Positions 27,345 to 42,256 of a stretch of DNA of 64,000 nt are shown here, in pieces (positions within the stretch are counted from its first letter, which is position 1; each line of letters opens with the position of its first letter). A program made the position numbers and the translations under genes. A model generated the notes under the pieces. That model ran no database searches. It saw only the letters and a program-made list of their open reading frames with translations, and was not told where the DNA came from. The DNA lies in assembly GCF_019656335.1 (NCBI RefSeq), contig NZ_BPLZ01000002.1, forward strand, positions 178,904-242,903, given 5' to 3'. The stretch comes from Pseudomonas sp. NCCP-436 (GTDB lineage Bacteria; Pseudomonadota; Gammaproteobacteria; Pseudomonadales; Pseudomonadaceae).

Positions 27345-28544
27345 TCAAATGGCTCCATGGCTGCGCAGTTCGGCGATCTGTTCGGGACTGTAGCCAAGCT
27401 CGCCGAGCACCTCGTCATTGTGCTGGCCCAATGCCGGGCCGATCCATTCGACGCTGCCGGGCGTCTCCGAGAGCTTGGGGACGATGCCCGGCATGCGGAA
27501 CGGTTTGCCGTCCGGCAGCCTGGCGGCAAGGAACATCTCGCGGGCCAGGTATTGTGGGTCGCCGAACATGTCCTCTACCGAGTAGATGCGGCTGGCCGGC
27601 ACTTCGGCTTGTCGCAGCACCTGCTCCACCTCGCTGAGAGGCAGGCTCGCGGCCCAGCGGTCGATGACCTCATACAGTTCGCCGCGCCGTGCATCGCGAC
27701 CATCGTTGCTGGCCAGGCCCGGATCGTTTGCCAGGTCGTCGCGGCCGATGGCCAGCATGAAGCGCTTGAAAATGGCATCGCCGTTGGCGCCAATCTGGAT
27801 GTGCTTGTTGTCGGCGGTGGTGTGGATCGAGGATGGCGTGATGCCGGGCATGATGTTGCCACTGCGTTCGCGGATGAAGCCGAACACGTCAAACTCCGGC
27901 ACCATCGACTCCATCATGGCGAACACGGCTTCGTAAAGTGCCACGTCCACCACCTGGCCGCTACCGCCGTTGACTTCGCGCTGGCGCAGGGCCATCAGGG
28001 CGCCGATCACGCCCCAGAGGGCGGCGATGGAGTCACCGATGCTGATGCCGGTGCGTACCGGTGGGCGATCCTCGAAGCCGGTGATGTAGCGCAGGCCGCC
28101 CATGGACTCGCCGACGGCGCCGAAGCCCGGCTGTTCCTTCATCGGGCCACTCTGGCCGAACCCGGAAAGACGCACCATCACCAGTTTGGGGTTGAGTGCG
28201 TGCAGGGTCTGCCAGTCGAAACCGAGTTTTTCCAGTACGCCGGGGCGGAAATTCTCGATCAGGACATCGGCATTGCTCAACAGTCTGCGCAGAGCCTCGC
28301 GACCAGCCTCATGCTTGAGGTTGAGGGTGATCGAGCGCTTGTTGCGTGCCTGTACGAACCACCACAGCGAGGTGCCTTCATAAATCTTGCGCCACTTGCG
28401 CAGCGGATCGCCACCGTCGGGCGATTCCACCTTGATGACTTCGGCGCCGAACTCGGCGCAGATGCGGGAGGCGAAGGGGCCGGCGATCAGGCTGCCTAGC
28501 TCGATGACCTTGAGGCCGGCGAGGGGTTTGCTGGATGTGTTCAT
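27345..28544 (-). CDS. CoA-transferase family III (CaiB/BaiF)
   Basis: LAGLKVIELGSLIAGPFASRICAEFGAEVIKVE. Catalytic Asp region present. AGGAG ribosome-binding site. Confidence 0.9.
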   Translation of the reverse strand: MNTSSKPLAGLKVIELGSLIAGPFASRICAEFGAEVIKVESPDGGDPLRKWRKIYEGTSLWWFVQARNKRSITLNLKHEAGREALRRLLSNADVLIENFRPGVLEKLGFDWQTLHALNPKLVMVRLSGFGQSGPMKEQPGFGAVGESMGGLRYITGFEDRPPVRTGISIGDSIAALWGVIGALMALRQREVNGGSGQVVDVALYEAVFAMMESMVPEFDVFGFIRERSGNIMPGITPSSIHTTADNKHIQIGANGDAIFKRFMLAIGRDDLANDPGLASNDGRDARRGELYEVIDRWAASLPLSEVEQVLRQAEVPASRIYSVEDMFGDPQYLAREMFLAARLPDGKPFRMPGIVPKLSETPGSVEWIGPALGQHNDEVLGELGYSPEQIAELRSHGAI

Positions 28545-28806
28545 GCGGGCTCCTGTGAGTGACTGCGCGGCAAGCCTATTCCTTTTCCGGAGTGTCGGCC
28601 AGGCGTTGCAAGTGCGAATGGGTTGACGCATTTCTGAGTGCACTTGCTGCCTGGCTGCGGTTTAATCTGCTGGCCAAAGGACATTCCCGGATTTTGCTCA
28701 TGGATGGCTTTTCTCCTCTTTTCCCTGTCGTTCTTCCTGCCGGACGCAGCTCATGCGTGATGGCGGGATGACTTCGCGTCTTTTCCGACGAATGACATGA
28801 CGCACT

Positions 28807-28838
28807 TCACATGTGATGTATTGCGATGTCACATGTGA
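28807..28838. promoter_or_regulatory. Tandem perfect palindromes TCACATGTGA (x2, 22-bp spacing); putative operator
   Basis: 28807-28816 and 28829-28838, about 20 bp upstream of the first ATG of the locus. Confidence 0.55.
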
Positions 28839-28856
28839 GGTTTTACGCTGAGGCGC

Positions 28857-29477
28857 ATGAGTACCAGGACATCAGCCTATTACCAGCGTCTTTATCGCCA
28901 GCGACTGCGTGAGCAGGGACTGGTGAAGAAGGAAGTCTGGATCCTGCCCGAGCACGCGCCGCTGTTGCTCGCGTTCGAGCGCAAACTCCGCCAGCCACAG
29001 GTGTCGCTGGCTACGATGGAAAAGGAGGAGGGTATGAGCATGCCGCAGGTTTGGACCGCCCAGGCGCTGTACGAGGCGCTGGCAGGTACGCAGCTTTTCC
29101 AGAGTGGGCAGGCCGGTATCGAACTGCTGCAGGGCGCTGACGCCAGTCTGCATGTGACCATGCATGAGTACGGCGAGCTGCCGTTGTTCATTGCGGTGTC
29201 CGGCGAGCAGATCGTGGTCGAGGCCCTGCTGTGGCCGGCCAGTGAGGTGATTGATGCGGCCACCTTCAACGAGGAGGTGCTGCGGACCCACAAGCTGTTT
29301 CCGCTGTCGTCCATCGGTCTGGAGCGCACGGCTGACGGTGGCGACTGCTACATCATGTTCGGCGCGCTGAGTTCGTCCTCGACCTTGGCCGACGTGGTGT
29401 TCGAGATCGAGCTGCTGGCCGACAACGTGATCAAGGCCACCGAAGCCTATGAAGGCTTCCTCAAGACCGGCGCCTGA
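28857..29477 (+). CDS. YjfI-like (DUF2170) protein with an N-terminal DUF3018-like (putative RHH-type DNA-binding) extension
   Basis: The first 59 aa carry YRQRLREQGL...VWILPEH (DUF3018-like). A strong internal ribosome-binding site AAAGGAGGAG precedes ATG 29034, so a shorter product starting at 29034 is possible. Confidence 0.65.
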   Translation: MSTRTSAYYQRLYRQRLREQGLVKKEVWILPEHAPLLLAFERKLRQPQVSLATMEKEEGMSMPQVWTAQALYEALAGTQLFQSGQAGIELLQGADASLHVTMHEYGELPLFIAVSGEQIVVEALLWPASEVIDAATFNEEVLRTHKLFPLSSIGLERTADGGDCYIMFGALSSSSTLADVVFEIELLADNVIKATEAYEGFLKTGA

Positions 29478-29491
29478 GAGGAGAACAAGCG

Positions 29492-30187
29492 ATGAATGTC
29501 TGGAGCAAGTTGCTGACGGCACTGCGCGGCGGTGCCAATGAAGTGGGTGAAGCCATGGTCGACAGCCAGGCCCTGCGTATCCTCGATCAGGAAATCCGCG
29601 ACGCCGACGCCGAGCTGCGCAAGTCCAAGGAGGCGCTGGCCGAGATCATGGCCAGGCACAAGCTGTCGGTGGACCGGTTGGCCAAGTGTACGGCGAGCAT
29701 TGCCGAGTATGAGCAGTACGCCCTCAAGGCGCTGGAAAGCGGCAACGAATCGCTGGCCAGGGAAGTGGCCGAGAAGATCGCCAACCTGGAGATCGAACAG
29801 GCCAGCGAGCGTGAGCAGGTCGAAGGTTTTGCCGCCAGCGTGGCGCAACTGCGCCAGGCGGTGAGCCAGGCCGAAGGCAATATCAAGCGCCTCAAGCAGC
29901 AGGTGGATACGGTCAAGGCCACCGAAAGCGTGCAGCGTGCGCAGATGGCCGTGGCCCAGCGCTACGGTGGTTCGCAGGCCAAGCTGCAGACCGCGGTCGA
30001 GTCGCTGGAGCGGATCAAGCAGAAGCAGGCCGAGCGGGTGGCGAAGATGGAGGCCTCGGCCGAGCTGGCCGCCACCAGTGCTCCGGACGATTCGCTGGAT
30101 GCCAAGCTGCGCGAGGCCGGGATCAAGGCCGGTAATGCCAGTGCCGAGAGTGTGTTGGCGCGCCTTAAGGACAAGGGCCGCGGTTGA
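29492..30187 (+). CDS. PspA/IM30 family protein (YjfJ-like; ESCRT-III superfamily)
   Basis: Coiled-coil PspA-like sequence (MNVWSKLLTALRGGANE...). GAGAGGAGAA ribosome-binding site. Confidence 0.85.
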   Translation: MNVWSKLLTALRGGANEVGEAMVDSQALRILDQEIRDADAELRKSKEALAEIMARHKLSVDRLAKCTASIAEYEQYALKALESGNESLAREVAEKIANLEIEQASEREQVEGFAASVAQLRQAVSQAEGNIKRLKQQVDTVKATESVQRAQMAVAQRYGGSQAKLQTAVESLERIKQKQAERVAKMEASAELAATSAPDDSLDAKLREAGIKAGNASAESVLARLKDKGRG

Positions 30188-30246
30188 GCCTTGTAAATAC
30201 GGGGCGCCTGCGTCCCGTTACCTGATTCGCTACGGAAAAGCATCAG

Positions 30247-30888
30247 ATGGAACTCTTCCTGCAGACTTTACTGTCGTTCCCTACAGTCATCTACAGCTTC
30301 CTGCTGTGCGTGGCGGTCATCTACTGGCTGGTGGTGGCTGCCGGTCTGCTGGAGATCGACCTGCTCGACATCGAGGCCGAGTCGGTGATGGAAGGCAGCG
30401 GCCAGACCGAGGGGCTGGCCGGTCTGCTGTACAAGTTCAAGCTTGATGGCGTTCCGCTCACCCTGATGCTGAGCCTGCTGTTCTTCTTCGGCTGGTTCGT
30501 CTGTTATTTCGTCGAGCTGTGGCTGCTGCGTCATCTGCCCTTGGGCTTACTGCGCTACCCGCTGGGGCTGCTGGTCATTGGTGGTGCCTTCGTCGTGGCT
30601 GCGCCATTGTCTGCTGCCGTTTGCCGGCCGTTGCGTCCTCTGTTCCTCAAGGCCGAAGCCACCAGCAACAAGTCGGTGCTGGGGCAGGTGGCAGTGGTAC
30701 GTAGCGGAAGGGTTAGCGCCAGCCATGGCGAGGCAATACTGGAGGATGGCGGTGCAGGCCTGATTCTGCGCGTGCGTTGCGATGAGACACAGGGCTTTAG
30801 GCGCGGCGACCGGGTGGTGCTGCTGGAGTACCTGGCAGCCGAGCACGCCTACCGGGTAATCAGCGAAGAAGAGTTCCGAGGCGTCTAG
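30247..30888 (+). CDS. YqiJ/NfeD-like inner-membrane protein (usual partner of SPFH proteins)
   Basis: N-terminal transmembrane helices and a C-terminal OB-like soluble domain. Sits directly upstream of the flotillin gene. Confidence 0.6.
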   Translation: MELFLQTLLSFPTVIYSFLLCVAVIYWLVVAAGLLEIDLLDIEAESVMEGSGQTEGLAGLLYKFKLDGVPLTLMLSLLFFFGWFVCYFVELWLLRHLPLGLLRYPLGLLVIGGAFVVAAPLSAAVCRPLRPLFLKAEATSNKSVLGQVAVVRSGRVSASHGEAILEDGGAGLILRVRCDETQGFRRGDRVVLLEYLAAEHAYRVISEEEFRGV

Positions 30889-30979
30889 CGGCTGCGGCCA
30901 GTCCCCTGGCAACGGAGCATCGGCAGGATGGGCGGCTGTCGTGCCTGTCGGTACATAAAAGCAAAGGAGTAGAGCTGTA

Positions 30980-33022
30980 ATGGAAAACCTTATCCCCTTC
31001 ATCGTCGGGGCAGGGCTGGTCGTTCTTTTCGTGATGGCCCTGATAGCCCTGTTCAAGGCGTTCTACATCAAGGTTCCGCAGGGTACGGCGCTGATCGTCA
31101 ACGACATGAGTTCCACCCCCAAGGTGCACTTCACCGGTGCGCTGGTGTATCCGGTGATCCACCTCAAGGAGTTCATGAAGATATCCCTGATCACCCTGGA
31201 GGTGGATCGTCGCGGCAAGGACGGGCTGATCTGCCGTGACAATCTGCGGGCCGACATCACCGTGGCCTTCTACCTGCGGGTCAACGAAACTCAGGAAGAC
31301 GTGCTAAAGGTGGCCAAGGCCATCGGTGTGGAGCGCGCTTCCGACCGTGGTGCGGTCAACGAGCTGTTCAACGCCAAGTTTTCCGAGGCGCTGAAGACCG
31401 TCGGCAAGCAGTTCGACTTCGTCCAGCTGTTCGAGAATCGCCAGGAGTTCCGTGACCGCATCGTCGAGGTGATCGGCAATGACCTCAACGGCTATGTGCT
31501 GGAGGACGTGGCCATCGACTATCTGGAGCAGACAGCTAAAACGTCGTTGGATCCAAGCAACATTCTTGATGCCGAAGGTATCCGCAAGATCACTGAGCTG
31601 ACCGCCGCGCAGAACGTCATCACCAACGAGCTGGAGCGCAACGAAGAGCTGGCGATCAAGAAGAAAAACGTCGAGACACGCGAGGCCACCCTGGCTCTGG
31701 AACGCCAGCAGGCCGACGCCGAAGCACGGCAGAAGCGTGAGATCGAGACCATCCGTGCCCGCGAAGAGGCCGAAACCCTCAAGGTGCGCGAGGAAGAGCG
31801 TCTGAAGGCCGAACAGGCGCGTATCCAGACTCAGCAGGAGCTGGATATTCGTGCCGAGAACCATTTGCGCGAGGTCGAGGTAGCCCAGCAGAACCGCCAG
31901 CGTGCGGTGGTCATCGAGATGGAGAAGGTCACCCGTGCCAAGGAGCTGGAAATGGTGGCCCGCGAGCGGGAAGTGGAGTTGCAGCGCATCGAAAAGGAAA
32001 AGGCGCTGGAAGAAGAGCGCAAGAATATCGCCGGAGTGATCCGCGAGCGCGTGGCGGTGGAGAAGACCGTGGCGCAGGAAGAGGAGCGCATCAAGGAGGT
32101 GCGCGAGGTTTCCGAGGCCGAGCGTCTCAAGCAGGTCGCCGTGCTCAACGCCCAGGCTGAAGCGGAGCAGGAGCTGGTGCGTCAGGTCAAGCAGGCCGAA
32201 GCCGACGAAGCCCGCTCCAAGCACAAGGCGGTGGAGATCAATACCCTGGCCCAGGCCGAGCTGGAGGCTGCGGCCAAGAGCGCCGAGGCCAAGAAGAAAC
32301 TCGCCGAAGGCATCGAAGCCGAGCGCGCGGCCCCCGGCCTGGCCGACGCCAAGGTGCGTGAAGTCACTGCTGCGGCAAAAGAGAAGGAAGGCCTGGCCGA
32401 AGCCCGCGTGGAGGCCGAGCGTCTGATCGCCGAAGCCAAGGGCGAGCAGGAAAAAGGTCTGGCGGAAGCGCGTGTGCTGGAAGCCCAGGCGGCCGCCAAG
32501 GAGAAAGACGGCCTGGCCGAAGCCAGGGTGATGGAGGAAAAACTCAGTGCCCAGGCACGTGGCGAAGAGCAACTGGGTCTGGCCAAGGCCAAGGCGACCA
32601 AGGAGCAGGGCTCTGCCGAGGCGGCAATCCTGCTGGAGCGTCTGAGCTCCGAAGCCGAAGGTCTGGGCAAGAAGTTCGGTGCTCTGGATTCGCTCAGCGA
32701 TGCGGCGCGTGCCCACGAGGAGTTCCGCATGCAGCTGGAGAAGAGCTTCGAGGAAGCCATGGCTGCCATCGCCGCAAACAAGGAAATCGCCAAGGATCAG
32801 GCCGAGGTGCTGGCCGCGGCCATGGCCAAGGCGAAGATCGAGATCGTCGGCGGCGAGGGCGACTTCTTCAATTCCTTCGCCAAGTCGCTGTCGGTGGGCA
32901 AGGCCATCGAAGGTGTGGTCGGCAAGAGCCCAGTGGTGCAGGACGTGATCGCCCGCCTGCTGGCTGGCAAGGCCGCAGCAGCGCAGCCGGTCGCGCCGAG
33001 CGCAGGTCCGGAGCAGGGCTGA
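30980..33022 (+). CDS. Flotillin-like SPFH/band-7 protein (YqiK-type)
   Basis: N-terminal transmembrane segment, an SPFH domain and a long EA-rich coiled coil with internal repeats. AAAGGAG ribosome-binding site. Confidence 0.88.
   Translation: MENLIPFIVGAGLVVLFVMALIALFKAFYIKVPQGTALIVNDMSSTPKVHFTGALVYPVIHLKEFMKISLITLEVDRRGKDGLICRDNLRADITVAFYLRVNETQEDVLKVAKAIGVERASDRGAVNELFNAKFSEALKTVGKQFDFVQLFENRQEFRDRIVEVIGNDLNGYVLEDVAIDYLEQTAKTSLDPSNILDAEGIRKITELTAAQNVITNELERNEELAIKKKNVETREATLALERQQADAEARQKREIETIRAREEAETLKVREEERLKAEQARIQTQQELDIRAENHLREVEVAQQNRQRAVVIEMEKVTRAKELEMVAREREVELQRIEKEKALEEERKNIAGVIRERVAVEKTVAQEEERIKEVREVSEAERLKQVAVLNAQAEAEQELVRQVKQAEADEARSKHKAVEINTLAQAELEAAAKSAEAKKKLAEGIEAERAAPGLADAKVREVTAAAKEKEGLAEARVEAERLIAEAKGEQEKGLAEARVLEAQAAAKEKDGLAEARVMEEKLSAQARGEEQLGLAKAKATKEQGSAEAAILLERLSSEAEGLGKKFGALDSLSDAARAHEEFRMQLEKSFEEAMAAIAANKEIAKDQAEVLAAAMAKAKIEIVGGEGDFFNSFAKSLSVGKAIEGVVGKSPVVQDVIARLLAGKAAAAQPVAPSAGPEQG
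32380..32600 (+). repeat. Imperfect in-frame tandem repeats inside the flotillin gene (encode KEK(E/D)GLAEARV... units)
   Basis: Three to four units of about 57-60 nt of gaaggcctggccgaagcccgcgtg-like sequence. Confidence 0.6.
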
Positions 33023-33030
33023 AAAATGTA

Positions 33031-33097
33031 GGGTGGACAAGGCTCTTGTTGTCCACCATTGGCGACTCGAACGGTGGACAAGCTGCGCGTTGTCCAC
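33031..33097. promoter_or_regulatory. Twin stem-loops GGTGGACAA-N8-TTGTCCACC (x2) between the flotillin and giant genes
   Basis: 33031-33056 and 33072-33097. Identical 9-bp arms. No U-tail. Confidence 0.5.
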
Positions 33098-33248
33098 CCA
33101 CCGACTACGCAGCATCATCGCCCGGCTTCACCCCGAGGAAGTCGACGAGGCACTGCGCGCCAAGATTGCCATTGTCGAGCAAAAGATCGGCGCTTGACTG
33201 ATGGGGTGGCTCAGGCCATCCGGATGCTGCAAATCCAGGAAGAACACG

Positions 33249-36200
33249 ATGTCGGACGCACAAACACAGGACGTATTGGACCGTGCCGTTGCCGAAGGCG
33301 GCGCCTACGAGGTGCTGCACAGGCGCCTGCAGGAGCAGGGCCAGCGCCTGCGCGGACTGACCGAAGCACTCAATGACCAGCGTCTGGCCGAGTTCGGCAG
33401 CAGTCAGATGGAAGCCATCGGCCGGGTACGCATCCGCACCGAAAACAACTGCATCGCCCGCGATATCGTCCAGGTCGGCGACAGCCTGCTATTCGGCTAC
33501 AACGTGTTCATCGGTCTGAAGAAGGAAACCCACGTCGCCGACGTGTTCTCCCTCTATCGTCTGGTCGAGGGTGTCGAAGGCTTCGAGGCCGAGCCGGTGC
33601 CGCTGGAGGGCAGTTTCCTGGCTCAGGCCAGTTTCGTCGCCGACTTCAACGAGCTGTACACCTATTACAAGAACACCCGCCTGCTGCAGCTAGCCATTCG
33701 CGACGGCAAGCTGCTGGCGAGTTTCCAGATCGGAGAGCGGATCACCGATATCCGCGTGTTCCGCTGGTCGATCTCCATGGACGGCAAGGACGTTCGCTAC
33801 ATCGACAACCGCGGCGAACGCGATATCGCGCTGCCGTCGCCGTTCGACTTCGAATGGCAGAAGACTTCCCGCGAGATGGTGGTCGCCGGCCGCCATCCGC
33901 ACATGAACATTCTCGATACCCTGTTCGTCGAGACCATCGGTGGCGACCTCACCATCAAGGTCGAGAACAACACCCAGGACGGTTTGGGCATCTACCGCGA
34001 AACGGTGGTGGACAAGACCCAGTCGCTGGACGACGCGCAGATCGAATATGCCCGTCTGGGCAGCCTGATCCTGTTGAAGATCCTGCCGTACCGCGAGGAG
34101 CAGTGGCGCTACCTGGTGTTCAACAGCCTGACCCGCCAGGTCGAACGCATCGATGCCATCGGCCTGGCCTGCGTGCAGCTGCCGGAAGACCACGGCATCA
34201 TCTTCCCCGGCGGCTACTACCTGCAGAGCGGCGAGTACAAGACCTTCGAGCAGCCCATGGGCGGCATGCGCTTCAAGCGCTCGGTGCGCTCACCCAACGG
34301 CGAGGACGTGCAGTACATCTTCTACCACCCGGAAGAAGGCCGTTCGGCGTTGTTCACCTACAACATGATCAACCGCCAGCTGCACAACCCCATCTTCGGC
34401 CACGGCTATGCGCGCCTGGAAGACGGGCGCATGGTGATCTTTTCCGCCGAGGGCAGCGAGCCGACCCGCATCCACCCGATGCAGATCTGGCAGACGCCGT
34501 TCGAGAGCGATGACTACGCCGCACGCCAGCCGGCGCGCAGCGGCTTCTTCGGGCGCATCGGCAACGCCGAGCTGGTGCGTGGTGTGTCCGACCTGCTTAA
34601 CCTCAGCCGTGAGATCGACAGCCGCGAAGTGTCGGTGGCGCGCTACACCCAGTTGTGCCAGAACACCCGTCGCCTGTTCGACGTCTATCACTGGCTGGGC
34701 GATGCCCAGTGCGCCGAGCTGGCGCCGCTGCTGCGCGAGATCGCCGCTACTGGCGAGCTGGTACTAGACGAATTCGAGAAGGTCGAGAGCATCCGCCAGC
34801 AGTCTGCCCGCGCCATGGCCGAGGCCGAGACACGGCACAAGAGCCTGCTCTCCGGCCTGCTGGTCGACAGCTGGGACGAGGTGCAGCATTTTGTCGAGGC
34901 ACTCAACGCCATCAATGCCCAACGCGGCCAGTTGCTGACCATCCGCGACCACCGCTACATCGACGTGGCGCGTATCGACGCCATGGAAACCGAGTTGCTG
35001 GAAGCGCAGGAGCGCGTGGCCACGGCCACTTCCGCCTTCCTCGCCAGCGACGCCGCGCTGCAACCCTACGTGCAGCGCCTGGGCGAGCTGGACAGCCTGG
35101 CGCAGAAGGCCGAGAGCGTCACCCAGCTCAACGAGCCGCTGGCCGAGATGCAGGCCATGGCCGGCAACCTGGACATGCTCTCCAGCCTGATGGCCGGGCT
35201 CAAGATCGACGACGCCACCCGGCGCACCGCCATCGTCGAGTCGATTTCCGAGGTCTACGCCCACCTCAACCAGGCCAAGGCGCGTGCCGAGCAGCGGCGC
35301 AAGGGGCTAGGCTCGGCCGAGACCGTGGCGCAGTTCGGCGCCCAGTTCAAGCTATTCGGTCAGGGCATCACCAACGCCCTGGCGCTGGCCCAGGATCCGG
35401 AGAAGTGCGACGAGCAGCTGTCGCGCCTGCTGGTGCAGCTCGAAGAGCTGGAAAGCCAGTTCGGTGATCACGAGCAGTTCCTCAGCGACATTCTCGGCAA
35501 GCGCGAGGAACTGCTGGAAACCTTCGAGTCGCACAAGCAGAGCCTGCTCGACGACCGCCAGCGCCGCGCCCAAGGCGTGCTCGATGCCGCCCGGCGCATC
35601 CTCGACAGCCTGAGCCGACGCACCGCGCGTCTGACCCAGATGGAAGAGCTCAACGCCTTCTTCGCCGCCGACCCGCTGATCCTCAAGCTGCGCGAGATGG
35701 CCGAGCGCCTGCGCGAGCTCAAGGACAGCGTCAAGGCCGATGATGTCGAAGCGCGTCTGAAGGCCGCCCGCGACCAGGCCGTGCGCGCCCTGCGCGACAA
35801 GAGCGAGCTGTTCGAGGAGGGCGGCAACGTCATCAGGCTCGGTCCGCGCCACCGCTTCAGCGTCAACACCCAGGAACTCGACCTGACCCTGATGCCGCGC
35901 GGTGATCAGCTCTATCTGCACCTGACCGGCACCGATTTCCTCGAACCGCTGCGCGACGAGAGGCTGGATGGTCTGCGCGACTACTGGCAGGTGTCGCTGG
36001 AGTCAGAATCGCCTTCGCTGTACCGCGCCGAATACCTCGTCGGCCTGGTGCTCGACGCCGCCTTGGCCGACCGTGAAGGACTGAGCCTGGATCTGCTCAA
36101 GACCCACCTGGCGCAGCCGGAAACCCTGACCCGGCTGATCCGCGACTTCGCCGCGCCGCGCTACAAGGATGCCTACGAGAAGGGCATCCACGATCATGAT

Positions 36201-38486
36201 GCGGCGCTGATCCTCGCCCGGTTGCTGCCGCTGCGCGAAAGCGCCGGGCTGCTGCGTTACGCGCCGGCCGCGCGGGGCTTTGCCGCGCTGTTCTGGAACC
36301 GCTGGGGACAGGATATCGAGGCCGAGCTGTGGCCGGAGCGCGCACGCAGCAGCCTGCACCTGCGCCAGTTGTTCGGCAGCGAGGACGGCGTGCAGCGCCT
36401 GCGCGAAGAGATCGATGCAGCCATGCAGCGCTTCCTCGCCCAGTACCCGCTGCCGGTAGACGCTGCGCAGCGCCAGGCGGCTGCGGCTTATCTGGTCGAG
36501 GAACTGGCGGCCAAGCCCATCGAGTTCAGCTTCAGCAGGTACGCCCGGCAACTGCTCGACAGCCTGCAGCAGCGCATGCAGGCCAGCCATGTCTGGGACG
36601 ACTACCGCGCCGCGCTGGACAACCTGCGTGGCCGCCCGGTGCAGCGCTGGTCGCTGGCGCAGACCTGGTTCGACGGCCTGTGTGCGCAGGATGCCAGCAT
36701 GGCCGAGCTGGCCGACTATGTGCCCGAAGCCATCGCCGTCAGCCTGCTGGATGACGAATTCCCGCGGCGTTTCACCGAGGTCGACCTGCGTTTCACTGTC
36801 AGCGGCCTGCTCGGCGATCATCCGCGTGTGCAGGATGGCGCGCTGCTGCTGGCCATCGACGACTACTTCGCCCGCCTGCAGCAGCACCTGGATCACTTCG
36901 TGCCGCAACTGCAGCGCTACCAGGCGCTGCGCCAGGAGGTGATCAACCGCGAGCGCGATGCGCTGCGCCTGAGCGAATTCAAGCCACGGCCGCTGTCGTC
37001 CTTCGTGCGCAACAAGCTGATCAATGACGTGTACCTGGGTTTCATCGGCGACAACCTGGCCAAGCAGATGGGCACCGCCGGCGAGAACAAGCGTACCGAC
37101 CTGATGGGCCTGCTGATGCTCATCTCACCGCCCGGCTACGGCAAGACCACGCTGATGGAGTACGTGGCACACCGCCTGGGCCTGATCTTCATGAAGGTCA
37201 ACGGCCCGGCGCTCGGTCACGAGGTGCGTTCCATCGATCCGGCGCAGGCGCCGGACGCCACCTCGCGCCAGGAGCTGGAGAAGCTCAACCTGGCTCTGGA
37301 GATGGGCAACAACGTGATGCTCTACGTCGACGACATCCAGCACACCCACCCCGAGTTTCTGCAGAAATTCATCTCGCTGTGCGACGGCACGCGGCGCATC
37401 GAAGGCGTGTGGAAGGGCAGGACCAAGACCTACGACATGCGCGGCAAGAAGTTCTGCGTGGTGATGAGCGGCAACCCGTACACCGAGTCCGGCGACGTGT
37501 TCAAGATTCCCGACATGCTCGCCAACCGCGCCGACATCTACAACCTCGGCGACACCCTCGGCGGCATGCAGGAAGCCTTCGCGCTGAGCTACATCGAGAA
37601 CGCCCTGACCTCCAACCCGGTGCTGGCGCCATTGGCCACCCGCGACATGGCCGACGTCTACCGCTTCGTCGCCAAGGCCGAGGGCAAGCCGTTCTCGGTG
37701 GGCGAGCTGAGCCACACCTACAGCGCCGCCGAGATCAACGAGATCACCTCGACCCTGCAGCGTCTGATGCAGGTGCGCGACGTGGTGCTCAAGGTCAACC
37801 AGCAGTACATCGCCAGCGCCGCGCAGGCCGACAGCTACCGCACCGAGCCGCCGTTCAAGCTGCAGGGCAGCTACCGCAATATGAACAAGATGGCCGAGAA
37901 GATCAGCTCGGTGATGAACGATGCCGAGCTGCTGCAGCTGATCGCCGACCACTATCAGGGCGAGTCGCAGCTGCTCACCACCGGCGCCGAGGAGAACCTG
38001 CTCAAGCTCGCCGAGCTGCGCGGCAACCAGACGTCCGAGCAGGCCGAGCGCTGGGCGCAGATCAAGCGCGACTTCATGCGCAACAAGGCCATGGGCGGCA
38101 GCGACAGCGATATTGGTGGCCGCGTGGTGGCGCAGCTCAATGACCTGGTCGAGAGCGTGCGCGGCCTGGGCGCCGGCAAGTCGGTCAGCGAAGCACCGAG
38201 CATTCCCTGGGAGCAGTTGCTGGCGGGGCTGGATAACCTCGGCAAGCTGCGTCCGCAGGTGGAGCTGGTTGCTCCGCCGCAGCCCGGCACGCAAAAATTG
38301 CTCGAAAGCCTGGCCGATAGCCTGGAGAACAGCTTTCTGCCGCTGATCAAGGCGATGGACAAGAAGATCGACATCGATTTGCGCACCCACAACCGCATGC
38401 TGGAAATCTCCACCCAGCTGCGTGACCTCGGCACGTTGCTCGGCCAGGAGCAGCGCAGCGCTGCCGCGGACGACGAGGCGACGTGA
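33249..38486 (+). CDS. Giant (1745 aa) uncharacterised protein: N-terminal beta-rich region, long coiled-coil middle, single MoxR/AAA_5-type ATPase domain near the C-terminus
   Basis: AGGAAG ribosome-binding site. Walker A SPPGYGKTT (about nt 37128), Walker B MLYVDDIQ, sensor VVMSGNPYTE, and an LANRAD arginine-finger-like motif. Confidence 0.85.
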   Translation: MSDAQTQDVLDRAVAEGGAYEVLHRRLQEQGQRLRGLTEALNDQRLAEFGSSQMEAIGRVRIRTENNCIARDIVQVGDSLLFGYNVFIGLKKETHVADVFSLYRLVEGVEGFEAEPVPLEGSFLAQASFVADFNELYTYYKNTRLLQLAIRDGKLLASFQIGERITDIRVFRWSISMDGKDVRYIDNRGERDIALPSPFDFEWQKTSREMVVAGRHPHMNILDTLFVETIGGDLTIKVENNTQDGLGIYRETVVDKTQSLDDAQIEYARLGSLILLKILPYREEQWRYLVFNSLTRQVERIDAIGLACVQLPEDHGIIFPGGYYLQSGEYKTFEQPMGGMRFKRSVRSPNGEDVQYIFYHPEEGRSALFTYNMINRQLHNPIFGHGYARLEDGRMVIFSAEGSEPTRIHPMQIWQTPFESDDYAARQPARSGFFGRIGNAELVRGVSDLLNLSREIDSREVSVARYTQLCQNTRRLFDVYHWLGDAQCAELAPLLREIAATGELVLDEFEKVESIRQQSARAMAEAETRHKSLLSGLLVDSWDEVQHFVEALNAINAQRGQLLTIRDHRYIDVARIDAMETELLEAQERVATATSAFLASDAALQPYVQRLGELDSLAQKAESVTQLNEPLAEMQAMAGNLDMLSSLMAGLKIDDATRRTAIVESISEVYAHLNQAKARAEQRRKGLGSAETVAQFGAQFKLFGQGITNALALAQDPEKCDEQLSRLLVQLEELESQFGDHEQFLSDILGKREELLETFESHKQSLLDDRQRRAQGVLDAARRILDSLSRRTARLTQMEELNAFFAADPLILKLREMAERLRELKDSVKADDVEARLKAARDQAVRALRDKSELFEEGGNVIRLGPRHRFSVNTQELDLTLMPRGDQLYLHLTGTDFLEPLRDERLDGLRDYWQVSLESESPSLYRAEYLVGLVLDAALADREGLSLDLLKTHLAQPETLTRLIRDFAAPRYKDAYEKGIHDHDAALILARLLPLRESAGLLRYAPAARGFAALFWNRWGQDIEAELWPERARSSLHLRQLFGSEDGVQRLREEIDAAMQRFLAQYPLPVDAAQRQAAAAYLVEELAAKPIEFSFSRYARQLLDSLQQRMQASHVWDDYRAALDNLRGRPVQRWSLAQTWFDGLCAQDASMAELADYVPEAIAVSLLDDEFPRRFTEVDLRFTVSGLLGDHPRVQDGALLLAIDDYFARLQQHLDHFVPQLQRYQALRQEVINRERDALRLSEFKPRPLSSFVRNKLINDVYLGFIGDNLAKQMGTAGENKRTDLMGLLMLISPPGYGKTTLMEYVAHRLGLIFMKVNGPALGHEVRSIDPAQAPDATSRQELEKLNLALEMGNNVMLYVDDIQHTHPEFLQKFISLCDGTRRIEGVWKGRTKTYDMRGKKFCVVMSGNPYTESGDVFKIPDMLANRADIYNLGDTLGGMQEAFALSYIENALTSNPVLAPLATRDMADVYRFVAKAEGKPFSVGELSHTYSAAEINEITSTLQRLMQVRDVVLKVNQQYIASAAQADSYRTEPPFKLQGSYRNMNKMAEKISSVMNDAELLQLIADHYQGESQLLTTGAEENLLKLAELRGNQTSEQAERWAQIKRDFMRNKAMGGSDSDIGGRVVAQLNDLVESVRGLGAGKSVSEAPSIPWEQLLAGLDNLGKLRPQVELVAPPQPGTQKLLESLADSLENSFLPLIKAMDKKIDIDLRTHNRMLEISTQLRDLGTLLGQEQRSAAADDEAT

Positions 38487-39031
38487 GACGAGGCTGGCTG
38501 GTTGAGTTGCGTCCGCTGCTGCTGATCAGCGGCGCGATGCTGCTGGTGCAGGTGGTCAATGGCGCCCGGAGTGGCGCCTTGAATCTCTGGGGCCTGGTGC
38601 CCCGCCATATCGAGGCGCTACCCGGCATCCTTCTCGCGCCCTGGCTACACGGCAGCTGGGCGCATCTGCTCAGCAATCTCAGTGGTCTGCTGGTACTCGG
38701 CAGTCTGGTGCTGCTGCGCTCGCGTCGGGACTTTTTCCTCGCCAGCGCCTTCATCATCGTCGGCAGCGGGGTGCTGGTCTGGCTGTTCGGCCGTACCGGC
38801 CTGCATGTCGGTGCCAGTGGCTGGCTGTTCGGCTTCTGGGGACTTTTACTGGCCCGGGCCTGGTTCGAGCGCAGCCTGCTCGACCTGCTGTTGGCGGTGC
38901 TGGTCTTCTTCCTTTATGGCGGCTGGTTCTTCGGCCTGCTGCCACGCGCCGGGGTCTCCTTCGAGTACCACCTGGCTGGTGCCTTCAGCGGCGTGCTATA
39001 CGCTGCGCTGAGTCGCCACCGCAATCAATGA
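38483..39031 (+). CDS. Rhomboid-family intramembrane serine protease
   Basis: GASGWLFG (Gx-S-G catalytic Ser) and HLAGAFSG (catalytic His). Six transmembrane helices. GTGA start/stop overlap with the giant gene. Confidence 0.8.
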   Translation: MRRGWLVELRPLLLISGAMLLVQVVNGARSGALNLWGLVPRHIEALPGILLAPWLHGSWAHLLSNLSGLLVLGSLVLLRSRRDFFLASAFIIVGSGVLVWLFGRTGLHVGASGWLFGFWGLLLARAWFERSLLDLLLAVLVFFLYGGWFFGLLPRAGVSFEYHLAGAFSGVLYAALSRHRNQ

Positions 39032-39046
39032 CGAAAGGGAATTTGC

Positions 39047-39736
39047 ATGGACTTCAACCGCCTCGACCAAACCCTGCGCGACAGCCTCGCCGACCTGCGC
39101 CTGAGCAATGAAGAGCGCGACGAACTGCGTGATCTGGGCAACGACCTGAGCCCGGATCAGGTGCGCTTCATGCGCAACCGCGCCTTTGCTCTGGTGCGTG
39201 ACCTGATCGCCAACCCCGAGGATGCCCTGCCGGCGCTGAAGTGGCTGGAGCAGGTGATCAAGACCCTGGAAGTGCGCTGTTCACCACTGCGCGGTCACAG
39301 CAGCGCGCACTTCAGTCCTGGCGAGAGCTGCCGCCAGCGCATCCGCGACCTGTGCCGCCACGCCCGGGAGTCGGTGGATGTCTGTGTGTTCACCATCTCC
39401 GATGACCAGCTCAGCGACGAACTGATTGCCGTGCACCGCCGAGGCCTGGCCGTGCGCATCATCAGCGACAGCGAGAAGCGCTTCGACGTCGGCAGTGACA
39501 TCCAGCAGCTGATCGATGCCGGCGTACCGCTGCGCATCGACAACAGCCCCTTCCACATGCACCACAAGTTCGCCCTGTTCGACGGCCGCCTGCTGCTCAA
39601 TGGCAGCTTCAACTGGACCCGCAGTGCCAGCACCAGCAATGAGGAAAACCTGCTGGTGACCGACGACCCGCATCTGGTTGGCGAGTACCAGCGTGAGTTC
39701 GACAAGCTCTGGGGCCGTTATGCAAGCAATGAATGA
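39047..39736 (+). CDS. Phospholipase D-like / Nuc-like single-HKD protein
   Basis: HMHHKFALFDGRLLLNGSFNWTRSA (HxK...D...GSxN). Helical N-terminal extension. AAAGGGA ribosome-binding site. Confidence 0.85.
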   Translation: MDFNRLDQTLRDSLADLRLSNEERDELRDLGNDLSPDQVRFMRNRAFALVRDLIANPEDALPALKWLEQVIKTLEVRCSPLRGHSSAHFSPGESCRQRIRDLCRHARESVDVCVFTISDDQLSDELIAVHRRGLAVRIISDSEKRFDVGSDIQQLIDAGVPLRIDNSPFHMHHKFALFDGRLLLNGSFNWTRSASTSNEENLLVTDDPHLVGEYQREFDKLWGRYASNE

Positions 39737-39935
39737 CGCATGCTTGCGCCACCTGTCCGGTGAGTATCCGCCTGTGGCGATTGACTGCGGCTGAAGGCTG
39801 GAGCGCTGTAACCGGTCCGCTATGGGGCGCTCGGAACAGGTTCTATGATGAGCCTGCTTCCAGCCAGGCGGAAGCAGCAGAGACAGGCTATTCGAGGTAG
39901 ACTTGTCGCCCTGTTTTTTCGCCAAGAAGCCCGCC

Positions 39936-40475
39936 ATGGCCCTGCCGTCGACCACCTACAAGATCGAAATGAATCTCACGGACATGGATCGCAGCGTTTA
40001 TGAAAACCTGCGGTTCACTGTCGCCCGTCACCCGTCCGAGACCGAAGAGCGTCTGGCTGTGAGGTTGATCGCCTACGCGCTGTTTTACGACGAGCTATTG
40101 GCCTTTGGTCGCGGTCTGTCGGATGTGGACGAGCCGGCACTGTGGCAGAAGAGCCTTGATGATCGGGTTCTACACTGGATCGAGGTGGGCCAGCCGGACA
40201 GCGAGCGCATCACCTGGTGCAGTCGCCGCGCCGAGCGCTTCAGCCTGGTGGCTTACGGCAATCTGCGGGTCTGGCAGGGAAAATGCCTCGAGCCGGTACG
40301 CAACCTGAAAAACATCAACGTGGTGGCTCTGGGGCAGGAGGCGTTGACCGATCTGGCGCAAGATCTGCCTCGCTCGCTGTCCTGGAGCGTGATGATCAGC
40401 GATGGCGAACTGTTCGTCACCGACGAGCGTGGACAGCACGAGATTCCGCTGGAGTGGCTGGTCGGCGAACGCTGA
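39936..40475 (+). CDS. yaeQ: YaeQ family protein
   Basis: MALPSTTYKIEMNLTDMDRSVYE... is the characteristic YaeQ N-terminus. Confidence 0.85.
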   Translation: MALPSTTYKIEMNLTDMDRSVYENLRFTVARHPSETEERLAVRLIAYALFYDELLAFGRGLSDVDEPALWQKSLDDRVLHWIEVGQPDSERITWCSRRAERFSLVAYGNLRVWQGKCLEPVRNLKNINVVALGQEALTDLAQDLPRSLSWSVMISDGELFVTDERGQHEIPLEWLVGER

Positions 40476-40546
40476 AGCCGGGCTACGGTTCGGTTCCCTC
40501 TCCCCTAGGGGGAGACAAACCCCGTCTCACCTGAAATAGACCCAAG

Positions 40547-42256
40547 ATGCGCATCGAAGCCCGACCCTTACCTTCCCAGTTGCCTGATCTGGGCAATCTG
40601 CCGCCGCTGCTCACCCGTCTCTACGCCGCCCGTGGCGTGCAGTCCGCCGAGGAGCTGGACAAGGGCCTGGCGCGGCTGATTCCCTACCAGCAGCTCAAGG
40701 GCATCGACGCTGCCGTCGAGCTGTTGGTCGAGGCGCTTGCGCAGCGCCAGTGCATCCTGATCGTCGGCGACTTCGATGCCGATGGCGCCACCGCCAGCAC
40801 GGTCGGCGTGCTTGGCCTGCGTCTGCTCGGCGCCGCGCATGTGGACTACCTGGTGCCGAACCGTTTCGAGTATGGCTACGGCCTGACCCCGGAAATCGTC
40901 GCCGTGGCGCTGCAGCGCAAGCCCGACCTGCTGCTGACCGTAGACAACGGCATCTCCAGCGTCGACGGCGTGGCCGCAGCCAAGGCCGCCGGGCTCAAGG
41001 TGCTGGTCACCGACCACCACCTGCCGGGGCCGGAACTGCCCGCAGCTGACGCCATCGTCAATCCCAACCAGCCGGGTTGCGCCTTCCCGAGCAAGGCCAT
41101 GGCCGGCGTCGGGGTGATGTTCTACGTGCTGCTGGCGTTGCGCGCGCGTCTGCGTGAAAACGGCTGGTTTGCCAGCCGTGGGGAGCCGAACCTGGGCGAG
41201 TTGCTCGACTTGGTGGCGCTTGGCAGTGTGGCCGATGTGGTGCCGTTGGATGCCAACAACCGCATCCTGGTGCACCAGGGGCTGGCACGCATTCGCGCAG
41301 GTCGGGCACGGCCAGGACTGCGGGCGATTCTCGAAGTGGCCGGGCGCGATCATAGGCGCATTACTTCCACCGACCTGGGTTTTATTCTTGGCCCACGGCT
41401 GAACGCGGCCGGGCGCCTGGACGACATGAGTCTGGGGATCGAATGCCTGCTCTGTGACGACGAGGCGCTGGCCCGCGACATGGCGGTACAGCTCGACCAG
41501 CTCAACCAGGATCGCAAGGCCATCGAGCAGGGTATGCAGCGCGAGGCGCTGGCGCAGCTCAAGGATTTGGCTCTGGACGATATGCCGTTCGGTCTGTGCC
41601 TGTTCGAGCCGGACTGGCATCAGGGGGTGATCGGCATCCTCGCTTCGCGGCTGAAGGAGCGCTATCACCGCCCGGCCATCGCCTTTGCCGATGCAGGGGA
41701 GGGCATGCTCAAGGGCTCGGCGCGTTCGGTGCCGGGGCTGCATATCCGTGACGCGCTGGACGCCGTGGCGGCGCGCCATCCGGGGCTGATCAGCAAGTTT
41801 GGCGGGCATGCCATGGCCGCTGGACTGTCGCTGCCGCAGGCTAATTTCGGCGCGTTCGCGGCCGCCTTCGATGCCGAGGTGCGTCGCCAGCTCAGCGAGG
41901 ACGACCTGACCGGTCGACTGCTGTCTGACGGACAACTGGCAGCCCACGAGTTCCACCTGGAACTGGCGCGCGCCTTGCGCAACGCCGGCCCCTGGGGCCA
42001 GCACTTCCCCGAGCCGCTGTTCCATGGTGTGTTCCAGATCGTGGGGCAGCGCATCGTAGGTGAGCGCCATCTGAAACTGGTGCTCAAAACCGAGTGCGGC
42101 AGCATGCAGCTCGACGGCATCGCCTTCAACGTGGATCGCGACGTCTGGCCCAACCCCACGCTGCGCTGGGCTGAACTGGCCTACAAGCTCGATCTCAACG
42201 AGTTCCGTGGTGTCGAGAGCGTGCAGTTGTTGGTGGTACATATCGCGCCGCGCTGA
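40547..42256 (+). CDS. recJ: Single-stranded-DNA-specific exonuclease RecJ
   Basis: DHH motifs (VGDFDADGATA, DHH) and a DHHA1 domain. Confidence 0.96.
   Translation: MRIEARPLPSQLPDLGNLPPLLTRLYAARGVQSAEELDKGLARLIPYQQLKGIDAAVELLVEALAQRQCILIVGDFDADGATASTVGVLGLRLLGAAHVDYLVPNRFEYGYGLTPEIVAVALQRKPDLLLTVDNGISSVDGVAAAKAAGLKVLVTDHHLPGPELPAADAIVNPNQPGCAFPSKAMAGVGVMFYVLLALRARLRENGWFASRGEPNLGELLDLVALGSVADVVPLDANNRILVHQGLARIRAGRARPGLRAILEVAGRDHRRITSTDLGFILGPRLNAAGRLDDMSLGIECLLCDDEALARDMAVQLDQLNQDRKAIEQGMQREALAQLKDLALDDMPFGLCLFEPDWHQGVIGILASRLKERYHRPAIAFADAGEGMLKGSARSVPGLHIRDALDAVAARHPGLISKFGGHAMAAGLSLPQANFGAFAAAFDAEVRRQLSEDDLTGRLLSDGQLAAHEFHLELARALRNAGPWGQHFPEPLFHGVFQIVGQRIVGERHLKLVLKTECGSMQLDGIAFNVDRDVWPNPTLRWAELAYKLDLNEFRGVESVQLLVVHIAPR

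Follow-up and report, generated by a model that had tools for sequence, protein, structure and literature searches.

What might a 1745-residue bacterial ATPase be doing beside a flotillin gene? The question is raised by a gene of Pseudomonas sp. NCCP-436, at positions 33249-38486 of a 64,000-nucleotide stretch of contig NZ_BPLZ01000002.1—the whole stretch is called the window here, and all genes and protein features described below lie on its plus strand unless otherwise stated. From its sequence and gene order we identify the gene as bacE, the orthologue of P. aeruginosa PA3728 (PA14_16190); it encodes a soluble ATPase that combines the Pfam families DUF3686 and DUF7902 with a AAA+ module of the MoxR class. 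Our answer is that BacE may be an ATP-driven remodeller of the flotillin/NfeD assembly encoded directly upstream of it, acting under envelope stress with the PspA protein as an accessory partner. We put the probability of this reading at about one half.

Identity of BacE

The reading frame opens with an ATG at 33249 that is preceded by the ribosome-binding site AGGAAG, and its stop codon ends at 38486, giving the 1745 residues proposed by a first-pass annotation of the window. A further ATG at 33201 is an unlikely start, because the methionine encoded at 33249 is an invariant column in alignments of the homologues. Nor is this a chance open reading frame, since more than 5400 protein clusters at 90% identity match it; the N-terminal 1200 residues match 483 clusters at E<1e-30 and 1420 at E<1e-3 (50%-identity clusters). 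The closest database match is a Pseudomonas sihuiensis protein with 94% identity, and the P. aeruginosa protein (1746 residues) is 79% identical over its full length. Generally, the Pseudomonas homologues share 79-94% identity at 99-100% coverage, are collinear with BacE, and carry the C-terminal AAA+ module with the family motifs.

The family is catalogued in Pfam. DUF3686, described there as an "ATPase involved in DNA repair", matches residues 34-481 with 687.2 bits (cut-off 25; E 1e-206), covering profile positions 2-448 of 448; DUF7902 matches residues 603-685, inside a helical region, with 99 bits (cut-off 26); and AAA_5 (27.9 bits) and AAA (25.3 bits) match residues 1289-1416, weakly yet over threshold. 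Named members come from the Pseudomonadales, Xanthomonadales, Enterobacterales, Burkholderiales, Myxococcota, Zetaproteobacteria, Verrucomicrobiota, Planctomycetota, Bacteroidota and Sumerlaeia, and both Pfam and Ravi et al. 2024 (PMC11237479) also mention eukaryotic or archaeal members. A hydrophobicity scan of BacE found no segment of transmembrane character. Searches of PDB sequences with BacE and with a 28-sequence profile returned only matches of ~40 residues around the P-loop, to RuvB, p97 and Rix7.

The conserved neighbours of BacE

Gene order is a crucial part of the argument. The syntenic order in P. aeruginosa runs from a CoA-transferase gene (minus strand) through genes for a DUF2170 protein, PspA, proteins of 213, 688 and 1746 residues, a phospholipase D (PLD) superfamily protein, YaeQ and RecJ to the M4 peptidase gene lasB. 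The window has the same flanks and the same order, DUF2170-PspA-NfeD-SPFH-BacE-PLD, with one extra gene, for a rhomboid protein; because of this synteny we take its genes to be bacA-bacF (PA3732-PA3727), presumably an envelope-stress operon with bacE as its fifth gene, here in a Pseudomonas of the mendocina/oleovorans group. In strain PA14 bacA-F form a single transcript by reverse transcription PCR (Wallart et al. 2024, PMC10948618), and in a bacA mutant BacB, C, D, E and F go up together, by 6- to 13-fold (PMC10948618). The same study, which named the genes the "biofilm-associated cluster", covered mutants of bacA and bacB only. Phage infection co-induces PA3728-PA3732 (PMC12041424), and they also rise together in a proteome study (PMC13637947). 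Across three independent studies, PA3728 is listed as a recurrent target of mutation in P. aeruginosa adapted to cystic fibrosis; its large size is a confounder (PMC8190622).

Directly upstream of bacE lies bacD (30980-33022), which encodes a 680-residue flotillin-type SPFH protein with an N-terminal transmembrane segment, the SPFH domain, a coiled coil rich in E, A, K and R, and a C-terminal region. At full length BacD matches nothing in Pfam, NCBIfam or PDB sequences—its blank in Pfam arises because the coiled coil masks the SPFH domain—and the first 250 residues match Band_7/SPFH with 32.9 bits (cut-off 23.6). Precomputed Pfam lists are blank too for BacD homologues at other loci. The next gene upstream, bacC (30247-30888), encodes a short NfeD or YqiJ-like protein, which has three hydrophobic segments and, at its C-terminus, a soluble domain; the BacC orthologue PA14_16160 has been termed a short NfeD, and the BacD orthologue in P. 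aeruginosa is PaFlo3 (PMC13086221). A hydrophobicity scan places one transmembrane-like segment at residues 1-33 of BacD, with lysines after it, and we infer that the bulk of BacD and BacC is cytoplasmic, on the same side as the soluble BacE and PspA. PspA itself is the product of bacB (29492-30187), a PspA/IM30 protein of the ESCRT-III superfamily (Pfam PspA_IM30, 191 bits), so that both neighbours named in the first-pass annotation, the flotillin and PspA, are present.

To see which of these neighbours are constant, the open reading frames of 80 genome loci were searched with the window proteins; upstream counts come from the 69 loci whose upstream sequence reaches 5 kb or more, and eight distant loci (Verrucomicrobiota, Planctomycetota, Bacteroidota and Sumerlaeia) were scanned with hidden Markov models built from the orthologues. 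BacD is encoded directly upstream of bacE on the same strand in 69 of the 69 proteobacterial loci, and so is BacC. PspA was found at 41 of the 69 loci and BacA likewise at 41, sometimes in divergent orientation; within 10 kb PspA is absent from the other 28. At the distant loci BacD was found in 7/8, BacC in 6/8 and PspA in 2/8 (absent within 10 kb from 6/8); the PspA counts refer to the neighbourhood of bacE. Because BacC and BacD are near-universal and PspA and BacA partial, the conserved core is NfeD-flotillin-BacE, and PspA/BacA is a frequent add-on.

The ATPase module

Structure was taken from two AlphaFold2 single-chain models, covering residues 1-1200 and 1201-1745 and built with a 73-sequence alignment at 41-95% identity; their mean predicted local distance difference test scores (pLDDT) are 82.9 and 79.6. 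The second contains a canonical AAA+ alpha/beta core, beta1 to beta5, at residues 1287-1436 (37107-37556). Walker A, SPPGYGKTT, occupies residues 1293-1301 (37125-37151) and Walker B, MLYVDDIQ, residues 1357-1364 (37317-37340), a spacing of 64 residues within one AAA+ domain. The sensor-1 strand VVMSGNPYTE (residues 1404-1413) and the segment PDMLANRAD (NRAD at 1426-1429) follow at 37458-37535, and R1427 is, by its position, a candidate arginine finger. Between alpha3 and beta4 the model has a pre-sensor-1 beta-hairpin at residues 1383-1396 (37395-37436), with strands at 1383-1388 and 1391-1396 and pLDDT 85-88; a conserved 18-residue segment between beta2 and alpha2 (residues 1319-1336), where the helix-2 insert that marks this superclade together with the hairpin would be expected, is modelled less clearly, as a short helix and loop without a hairpin.

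The first-pass annotation had quoted these motifs at these positions, and it was also right that there is no N-terminal P-loop: none occurs in the first 1290 residues, and the only other GxGK[ST] sequence, GAGKS at residue 1641, is non-conserved and falls in a variable, low-confidence tail. It had further asked whether the motifs degenerate in orthologues. They do not—across 69 full-length representatives, whose N-terminal regions are 27-56% identical to that of BacE, Walker A, DDIQH, GNPYT and PDMLxNR are near-invariant. Walker A reads GKTS in three of them, and Walker B is DDIQH in all but one, which has DDVQH; the acidic pair is thus DD, not DE, and the whole family has another residue in place of the usual catalytic glutamate. 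Conservation along BacE is highest in the ATPase region, at 91-96% among the 120 nearest homologues.

The Foldseek top list for the AAA+ model is mixed, with RuvB, NorQ, CbbQ and MCM, and RuvB stands first by E-value; the highest target-normalised template modelling (TM) score among the matches belongs to NorQ, at 0.53-0.60. The closest solved structures to the module are members of the MoxR/AAA_5 class. Because of the NorQ scores, the pre-sensor-1 hairpin and the "GNPYTE...PDMLANRAD" motifs, the model supports assigning the BacE ATPase to this class by a moderate margin, as the first reading of the sequence had proposed. BacE is not a canonical MoxR, given its DD Walker B and the lack of a VWA partner: the VWA/MIDAS protein typical of MoxR proper was found neither in the operon nor among the recurrent families flanking the 80 loci. 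Two further identities were set aside, again in agreement with the earlier call. An SMC/Rad50-type ATPase is contradicted by the missing N-terminal P-loop, by Walker A and B sharing one AAA+ domain, and by the absence of any SMC/Rad50 match in Pfam; for a dynamin-like GTPase, there is no dynamin or GTPase match in Pfam or NCBIfam.

Domain architecture outside the ATPase

Upstream of the module lie ~1250 residues of conserved, non-ATPase sequence. After an N-terminal helix at residues 19-49, the model has a beta-propeller at residues 55-415 (33411-34493), within DUF3686, with ~28 strands in ~7 blades—the form taken by the beta-rich N-terminus noted at first pass. Foldseek matched this region to 7-bladed propellers; weak matches to a propeller-plus-solenoid nucleoporin, clathrin heavy chain and IFT-A have TM-scores of ~0.1 and reflect local similarity only.

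Residues 421-849 (34509-35795), which include DUF7902, form a segmented region of 13 helices, each 15-51 residues long. When hydrophobic periodicity was compared by Fourier analysis with that of shuffled sequences, heptads emerged in BacE only at residues 489-568, 660-695, 700-806, 1197-1243 and 1659-1733; within residues 421-849, ~223 residues exceed the 99th percentile of the shuffles. A disordered linker at residues 850-878 leads to residues 879-1170 (35883-36758; pLDDT ~90), a compact domain that is helical apart from a small sheet and has no heptad signal. Hence the ~800 residues of coiled coil expected at first pass hold up as a helical middle, but not in extent: the segmented helices take up ~430 residues, of which about half are heptad-like, and the globular domain stands apart from them. 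The helices of 15-51 residues are interrupted by loops, so, on the predicted secondary structure, a single continuous dynein-like stalk was rejected; likewise a second, degenerate AAA+ domain in the middle of BacE, as this part is modelled almost entirely helical, without a Rossmann-like sheet.

The globular domain is an orphan: a profile of residues 872-1175 run against PDB sequences, and family members scanned against Pfam, gave nothing significant. It nevertheless holds an invariant polar cluster that is kept across phyla—E920, R926, E928, Y972, Y976, G979-x-H981-D982-x-D984 and R1009. The domain may serve for docking, or it may hold an active site that has so far escaped recognition. Reading H981-D982 as part of an HD phosphohydrolase is unsupported, with no Pfam or PDB sequence match.

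Beyond the AAA+ core, a lid and a conserved C-terminal helical extension at residues 1441-1642 (37569-38174) include the invariant EPPFKLQGSYRNMNK, and a long C-terminal helix at residues 1681-1730 (38289-38438) is heptad-periodic and variable in sequence.

Proposed function and its alternatives

Remodelling of the flotillin/NfeD assembly is the most likely role for BacE because BacC and BacD are its near-universal neighbours and PspA a partial one. SPFH proteins build closed membrane cages (PMC11260169, PMC12624060), and SPFH-AAA+ pairs are known in HflK/C with FtsH (PMC13220708) and in prohibitin with the m-AAA protease (PMC13376388). BacE would form a ring through its AAA+ domains, probably a hexamer like other single-module AAA+ proteins of the MoxR class, and its helical arms would carry the propellers outward. 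The membrane-anchored flotillin BacD and the NfeD-like BacC would be its obligate partners; propeller and arms would attach to the flotillin assembly, and the ring, by hydrolysing ATP, might open, disassemble or turn over the SPFH cage, or extract something from it. In lineages such as Pseudomonas the module would additionally be wired to BacA and PspA, coupling it to flotillin-dependent membrane repair by PspA; in B. subtilis an SPFH protein recruits PspA to the membrane (PMC8581546), and an early ESCRT-III/SPFH link is noted in PMC10936438.

There is a bolder form of this proposal, which we regard as less likely than not: BacE may be the first dedicated ATP-driven remodeller of SPFH/flotillin cages, a soluble MoxR-class ring whose six propeller-tipped arms grip the flotillin dome and open or disassemble it. 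We know of no mechanism, in any organism, by which closed SPFH cages are opened or recycled, and such a remodeller would explain both. BacE would then be to flotillins what NSF is to SNAREs or Vps4 to ESCRT-III, and the GxHDxD cluster of the orphan domain would be a docking site or an unrecognised catalytic centre.

Several points weigh against remodelling of the flotillin assembly. Gene adjacency is silent on which component is the substrate, and what links BacE to BacD is the evidence of their genes. One Bacteroidota genome, Aureibacter, has BacE with no flotillin nearby. The precedent from known SPFH-AAA+ pairs is loose, as the AAA+ partners there are membrane-anchored proteases of a different clade. 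The structural margin of the MoxR assignment over other AAA+ clades is moderate (~3 Z units), and the Walker B pair, DD instead of DE in every member, may mean slow hydrolysis and a cycle that is switch-like rather than motor-like. Finally, deletion of the paFlo3 flotillin in PA14 cut biofilm by just ~20% (PMC13086221), and an effect of that size points to a subtle or conditional physiological role for the module.

Of the rivals, the one that survives best was raised at first pass: BacE as a Vps4-like motor that disassembles the ESCRT-III homologue PspA (BacB), with the flotillin merely a platform. PspA and BacA share the operon in the 41 loci counted above, PspA turns up again in a Bacteroidota locus (L084, also with BacA), and the genes are co-transcribed and co-regulated in P. 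aeruginosa, as seen in PMC10948618 and PMC12041424. PspA-AAA+ associations have been read as ESCRT-like, ATP-dependent remodelling by Ravi et al. 2024 (PMC11237479), and the SPFH-PspA link is established in B. subtilis (PMC8581546). However, PspA is missing from 28/69 loci and from 6/8 loci of distant phyla, the flotillin being almost always adjacent; it is divergently oriented in Marinobacter and Cellvibrionaceae; and at one Verrucomicrobiota locus it has a 559-residue classical AAA protein of its own. BacE, for its part, shows no MIT domain in the Pfam scan—its N-terminus is a propeller—and it folds differently from the classical Vps4 clade. These results weaken the Vps4-like proposal to the point where we regard it as rather unlikely, and PspA is a less likely substrate than flotillin/NfeD.

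Somewhat less probable again is a scaffold or tether gated by nucleotide, in which a six-armed ring coats or cross-links flotillin domes, much as coat proteins built of propeller and helices do, and ATP binding serves as an assembly switch. The DD Walker B of all members would suit such a switch, as would the propeller-then-helices N-terminus with its weak Foldseek matches to Nup, clathrin heavy chain and IFT-A, and the conservation of ~1250 non-ATPase residues. Against this, a complete hydrolytic cycle is indicated by the invariance of the sensor-1 asparagine, of Walker A and of the candidate arginine finger; the TM-scores of ~0.1 to coat proteins come from local propeller similarity; and CbbQ and NorQ, which are nearest to BacE in structure, are active remodellers.

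We consider it improbable that BacE and the PLD-family protein BacF make up an anti-phage defence or abortive-infection module. The idea draws on the induction of PA3728-PA3732 by phage (PMC12041424), on the resemblance of the PLD protein to DrmC, DpdK and NucT (E 1e-6 to 1e-12), and on McrB also belonging to the AAA_5 class; however, the phage response is also expected of a generic, Psp-type response to envelope stress, the PLD gene is found in only 18 of 80 loci, PADLOC gave BacE just an 18-bit coiled-coil match to LmuB and the PLD protein a weak likeness to DrmC and DpdK, and both in P. aeruginosa and here the locus belongs to the syntenic core chromosome and not to a variable island. A DNA repair ATPase, as the Pfam and NCBI names have it, is the least credible reading: it can cite those names, the recJ and yaeQ genes downstream in Pseudomonas and a weak P-loop similarity to RuvB, but we found no basis for the name (DUF3686/PF12458 had no match in the literature searched), recJ and yaeQ lie near bacE in just 7/80 loci while the membrane proteins BacC and BacD are universal, the RuvB similarity is confined to ~40 residues around the P-loop, and the Pfam scan of BacE contains no DNA-binding or nuclease domain.

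Remodelling of the flotillin/NfeD assembly is thus the reading we carry forward, and it bears on annotation. BacE is the one ATPase found consistently with a widespread type of bacterial flotillin/NfeD pair, and its strongly conserved family spans at least five bacterial phyla; its members are annotated everywhere as "DNA repair ATPase", the NCBI label on nearly all homologues. We suggest renaming the family flotillin-associated MoxR-class AAA+ ATPase (BacE) and dropping the DNA-repair label. As a dedicated ATPase partner, PA3728 in the genetically tractable P. aeruginosa would give direct experimental access to the function of bacterial flotillins and to the assembly, opening and turnover of SPFH cages.

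Other genes and regulatory DNA

The operon begins with bacA (28857-29477), whose product is a DUF2170 protein resembling CesT/Tir-type chaperones or regulators (Pfam DUF2170, 175.8 bits; NCBIfam "biofilm formation regulator BacA", 343.5 bits, cut-off 300). Downstream of bacE, the gene for a rhomboid-family intramembrane protease (38483-39031; Pfam Rhomboid, 73 bits) starts with a GTG that overlaps the bacE stop codon (GTGA); this gene adjoins bacE in 13 of the 80 loci and is absent from P. aeruginosa. The last gene, bacF (39047-39736), encodes a soluble, single-HKD member of the PLD superfamily (Pfam PLDc_2, 105.8 bits), and its position matches PA14_16200 (PMC10948618). The motif HxK...D...GSxN is intact in BacF, which is closer to the nuclease-type PLDs NucT, DrmC and DpdK than to phospholipases.

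Clustering of all other open reading frames flanking bacE at the 80 loci gave no further universal neighbour, only lineage-specific synteny and one frame of ~114 codons. The latter, small and conserved, recurs in the pspA-bacC region, ~3.4 kb ahead of bacE, at 11 loci of several orders (Methylomonas, Thiodiazotropha, Marinobacter, Burkholderiales and others), for example between pspA and bacC at 6835-7200 of locus L068; it is absent from the window. Two single genomes show other arrangements. At the Verrucomicrobiota locus L083 (1151-3750 and 14444-21151), PspA is divergently paired with its own classical AAA protein beside BacC-BacD-BacE, and an RNA-repair cluster of RtcR, a Ro60-like protein, RtcB and RtcA lies just downstream. 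P. aeruginosa has another SPFH gene within its rtc locus (PMC13086221), and rtc and PA3728-32 are induced together (PMC13637947). At locus L089 (2912-8038) bacE is separated from the flotillin gene by an inserted block of mobile or toxin-like genes (ORF6N, RhuM and Fic).

The perfect palindrome TCACATGTGA occurs twice, at 28807-28816 and 28829-28838; the copies are 22 bp apart and lie 19-50 nucleotides upstream of the bacA start. A related TYACATGTGA pair with ~22 bp spacing takes the same position before bacA in P. aeruginosa, other Pseudomonas, Lysobacter, Oleiphilaceae and Gilliamella; with up to one mismatch the motif is found at 19 of 38 loci, against ~0.01 per locus expected by our own estimate. 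The TCACATGTGA pair is probably an operator for a regulator of the bac operon. The sigma-54 promoter proposed in PA14 rested on sequence inspection alone; upstream of bacA (28644-28856) we found no TGGCAC-N5-TTGC within two mismatches, and matches across the window are at chance level (96 against 94 expected). When 28500-40600 was scanned for sigma-70 promoters and terminators, nothing promoter-like came up, nor did any convincing terminator on the plus strand within the operon.

The spacer between bacD and bacE holds two tandem hairpins, GGTGGACAA-N8-TTGTCCACC, at 33032-33057 and 33073-33098, that resemble repetitive extragenic palindromic (REP) elements. The 9-mer has 5 exact copies in the window against 0.35 expected, and the T-run of the hairpin at 33032-33057 is on the minus strand only. 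Candidate roles for these hairpins are mRNA stability, differential expression of bacE, or that of a selfish element.

Comparison with known systems

Among AAA+ proteins of known structure, CbbQ and NorQ (PDB 6l1q, 9qh4) are stand-alone proteins of ~260 residues that work via a VWA/MIDAS partner (CbbO, NorD). BacE differs in having ~1250 residues upstream and ~300 downstream of its module, in lacking a VWA partner at the 80 loci, and in its DD pair; identity to them is 14-18%. Dynein and midasin (Rea1) concatenate six modules per chain, whereas BacE has one, with no homology to them outside the AAA+ fold. The Vps4/ESCRT-III system is alike in that a AAA+ gene stands beside a gene of the ESCRT-III superfamily (pspA) at many loci, which makes a disassembly role plausible; however, BacE belongs to a different AAA+ clade, has no MIT domain, and can do without PspA in its neighbourhood.

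HflK/C-FtsH, prohibitin/m-AAA and SLP2-PARL-YME1L each couple an SPFH cage former to a AAA+ machine, as is proposed here for BacE. The AAA+ members of these pairs are membrane-anchored, FtsH-type proteases of the classical clade; in contrast, BacE is soluble, of the MoxR class, and without a protease domain. The mitochondrial SLP2-PARL-YME1L hub includes a rhomboid, and the combination of SPFH, AAA+ and rhomboid genes in the window recalls it.

The direct counterpart is P. aeruginosa BacE (PA3728/PA14_16190), which has the same domain set, gene order and flanks and is related to the window gene by direct orthology; in the window, the rhomboid gene additionally separates bacE from bacF. Ravi et al. 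2024 (PMC11237479) describe the PspA/flotillin/AAA+ operon type, note that abbreviated operons without PspA are more widespread, and infer a part in ATP-dependent membrane dynamics for the same family, in a brief and purely computational treatment. The novelty claimed at first pass therefore does not stand: the protein belongs to the catalogued families DUF3686 and DUF7902, its orthologue had been named BacE (PMC10948618), and its neighbourhood had been described (PMC11237479). The gene and its operon, like the idea that it is a remodeller, had been published before, and the window adds little as discovery; what is added here beyond Ravi et al. 2024 is the assignment of the AAA+ clade, the domain map of BacE, and the counts of partner conservation.

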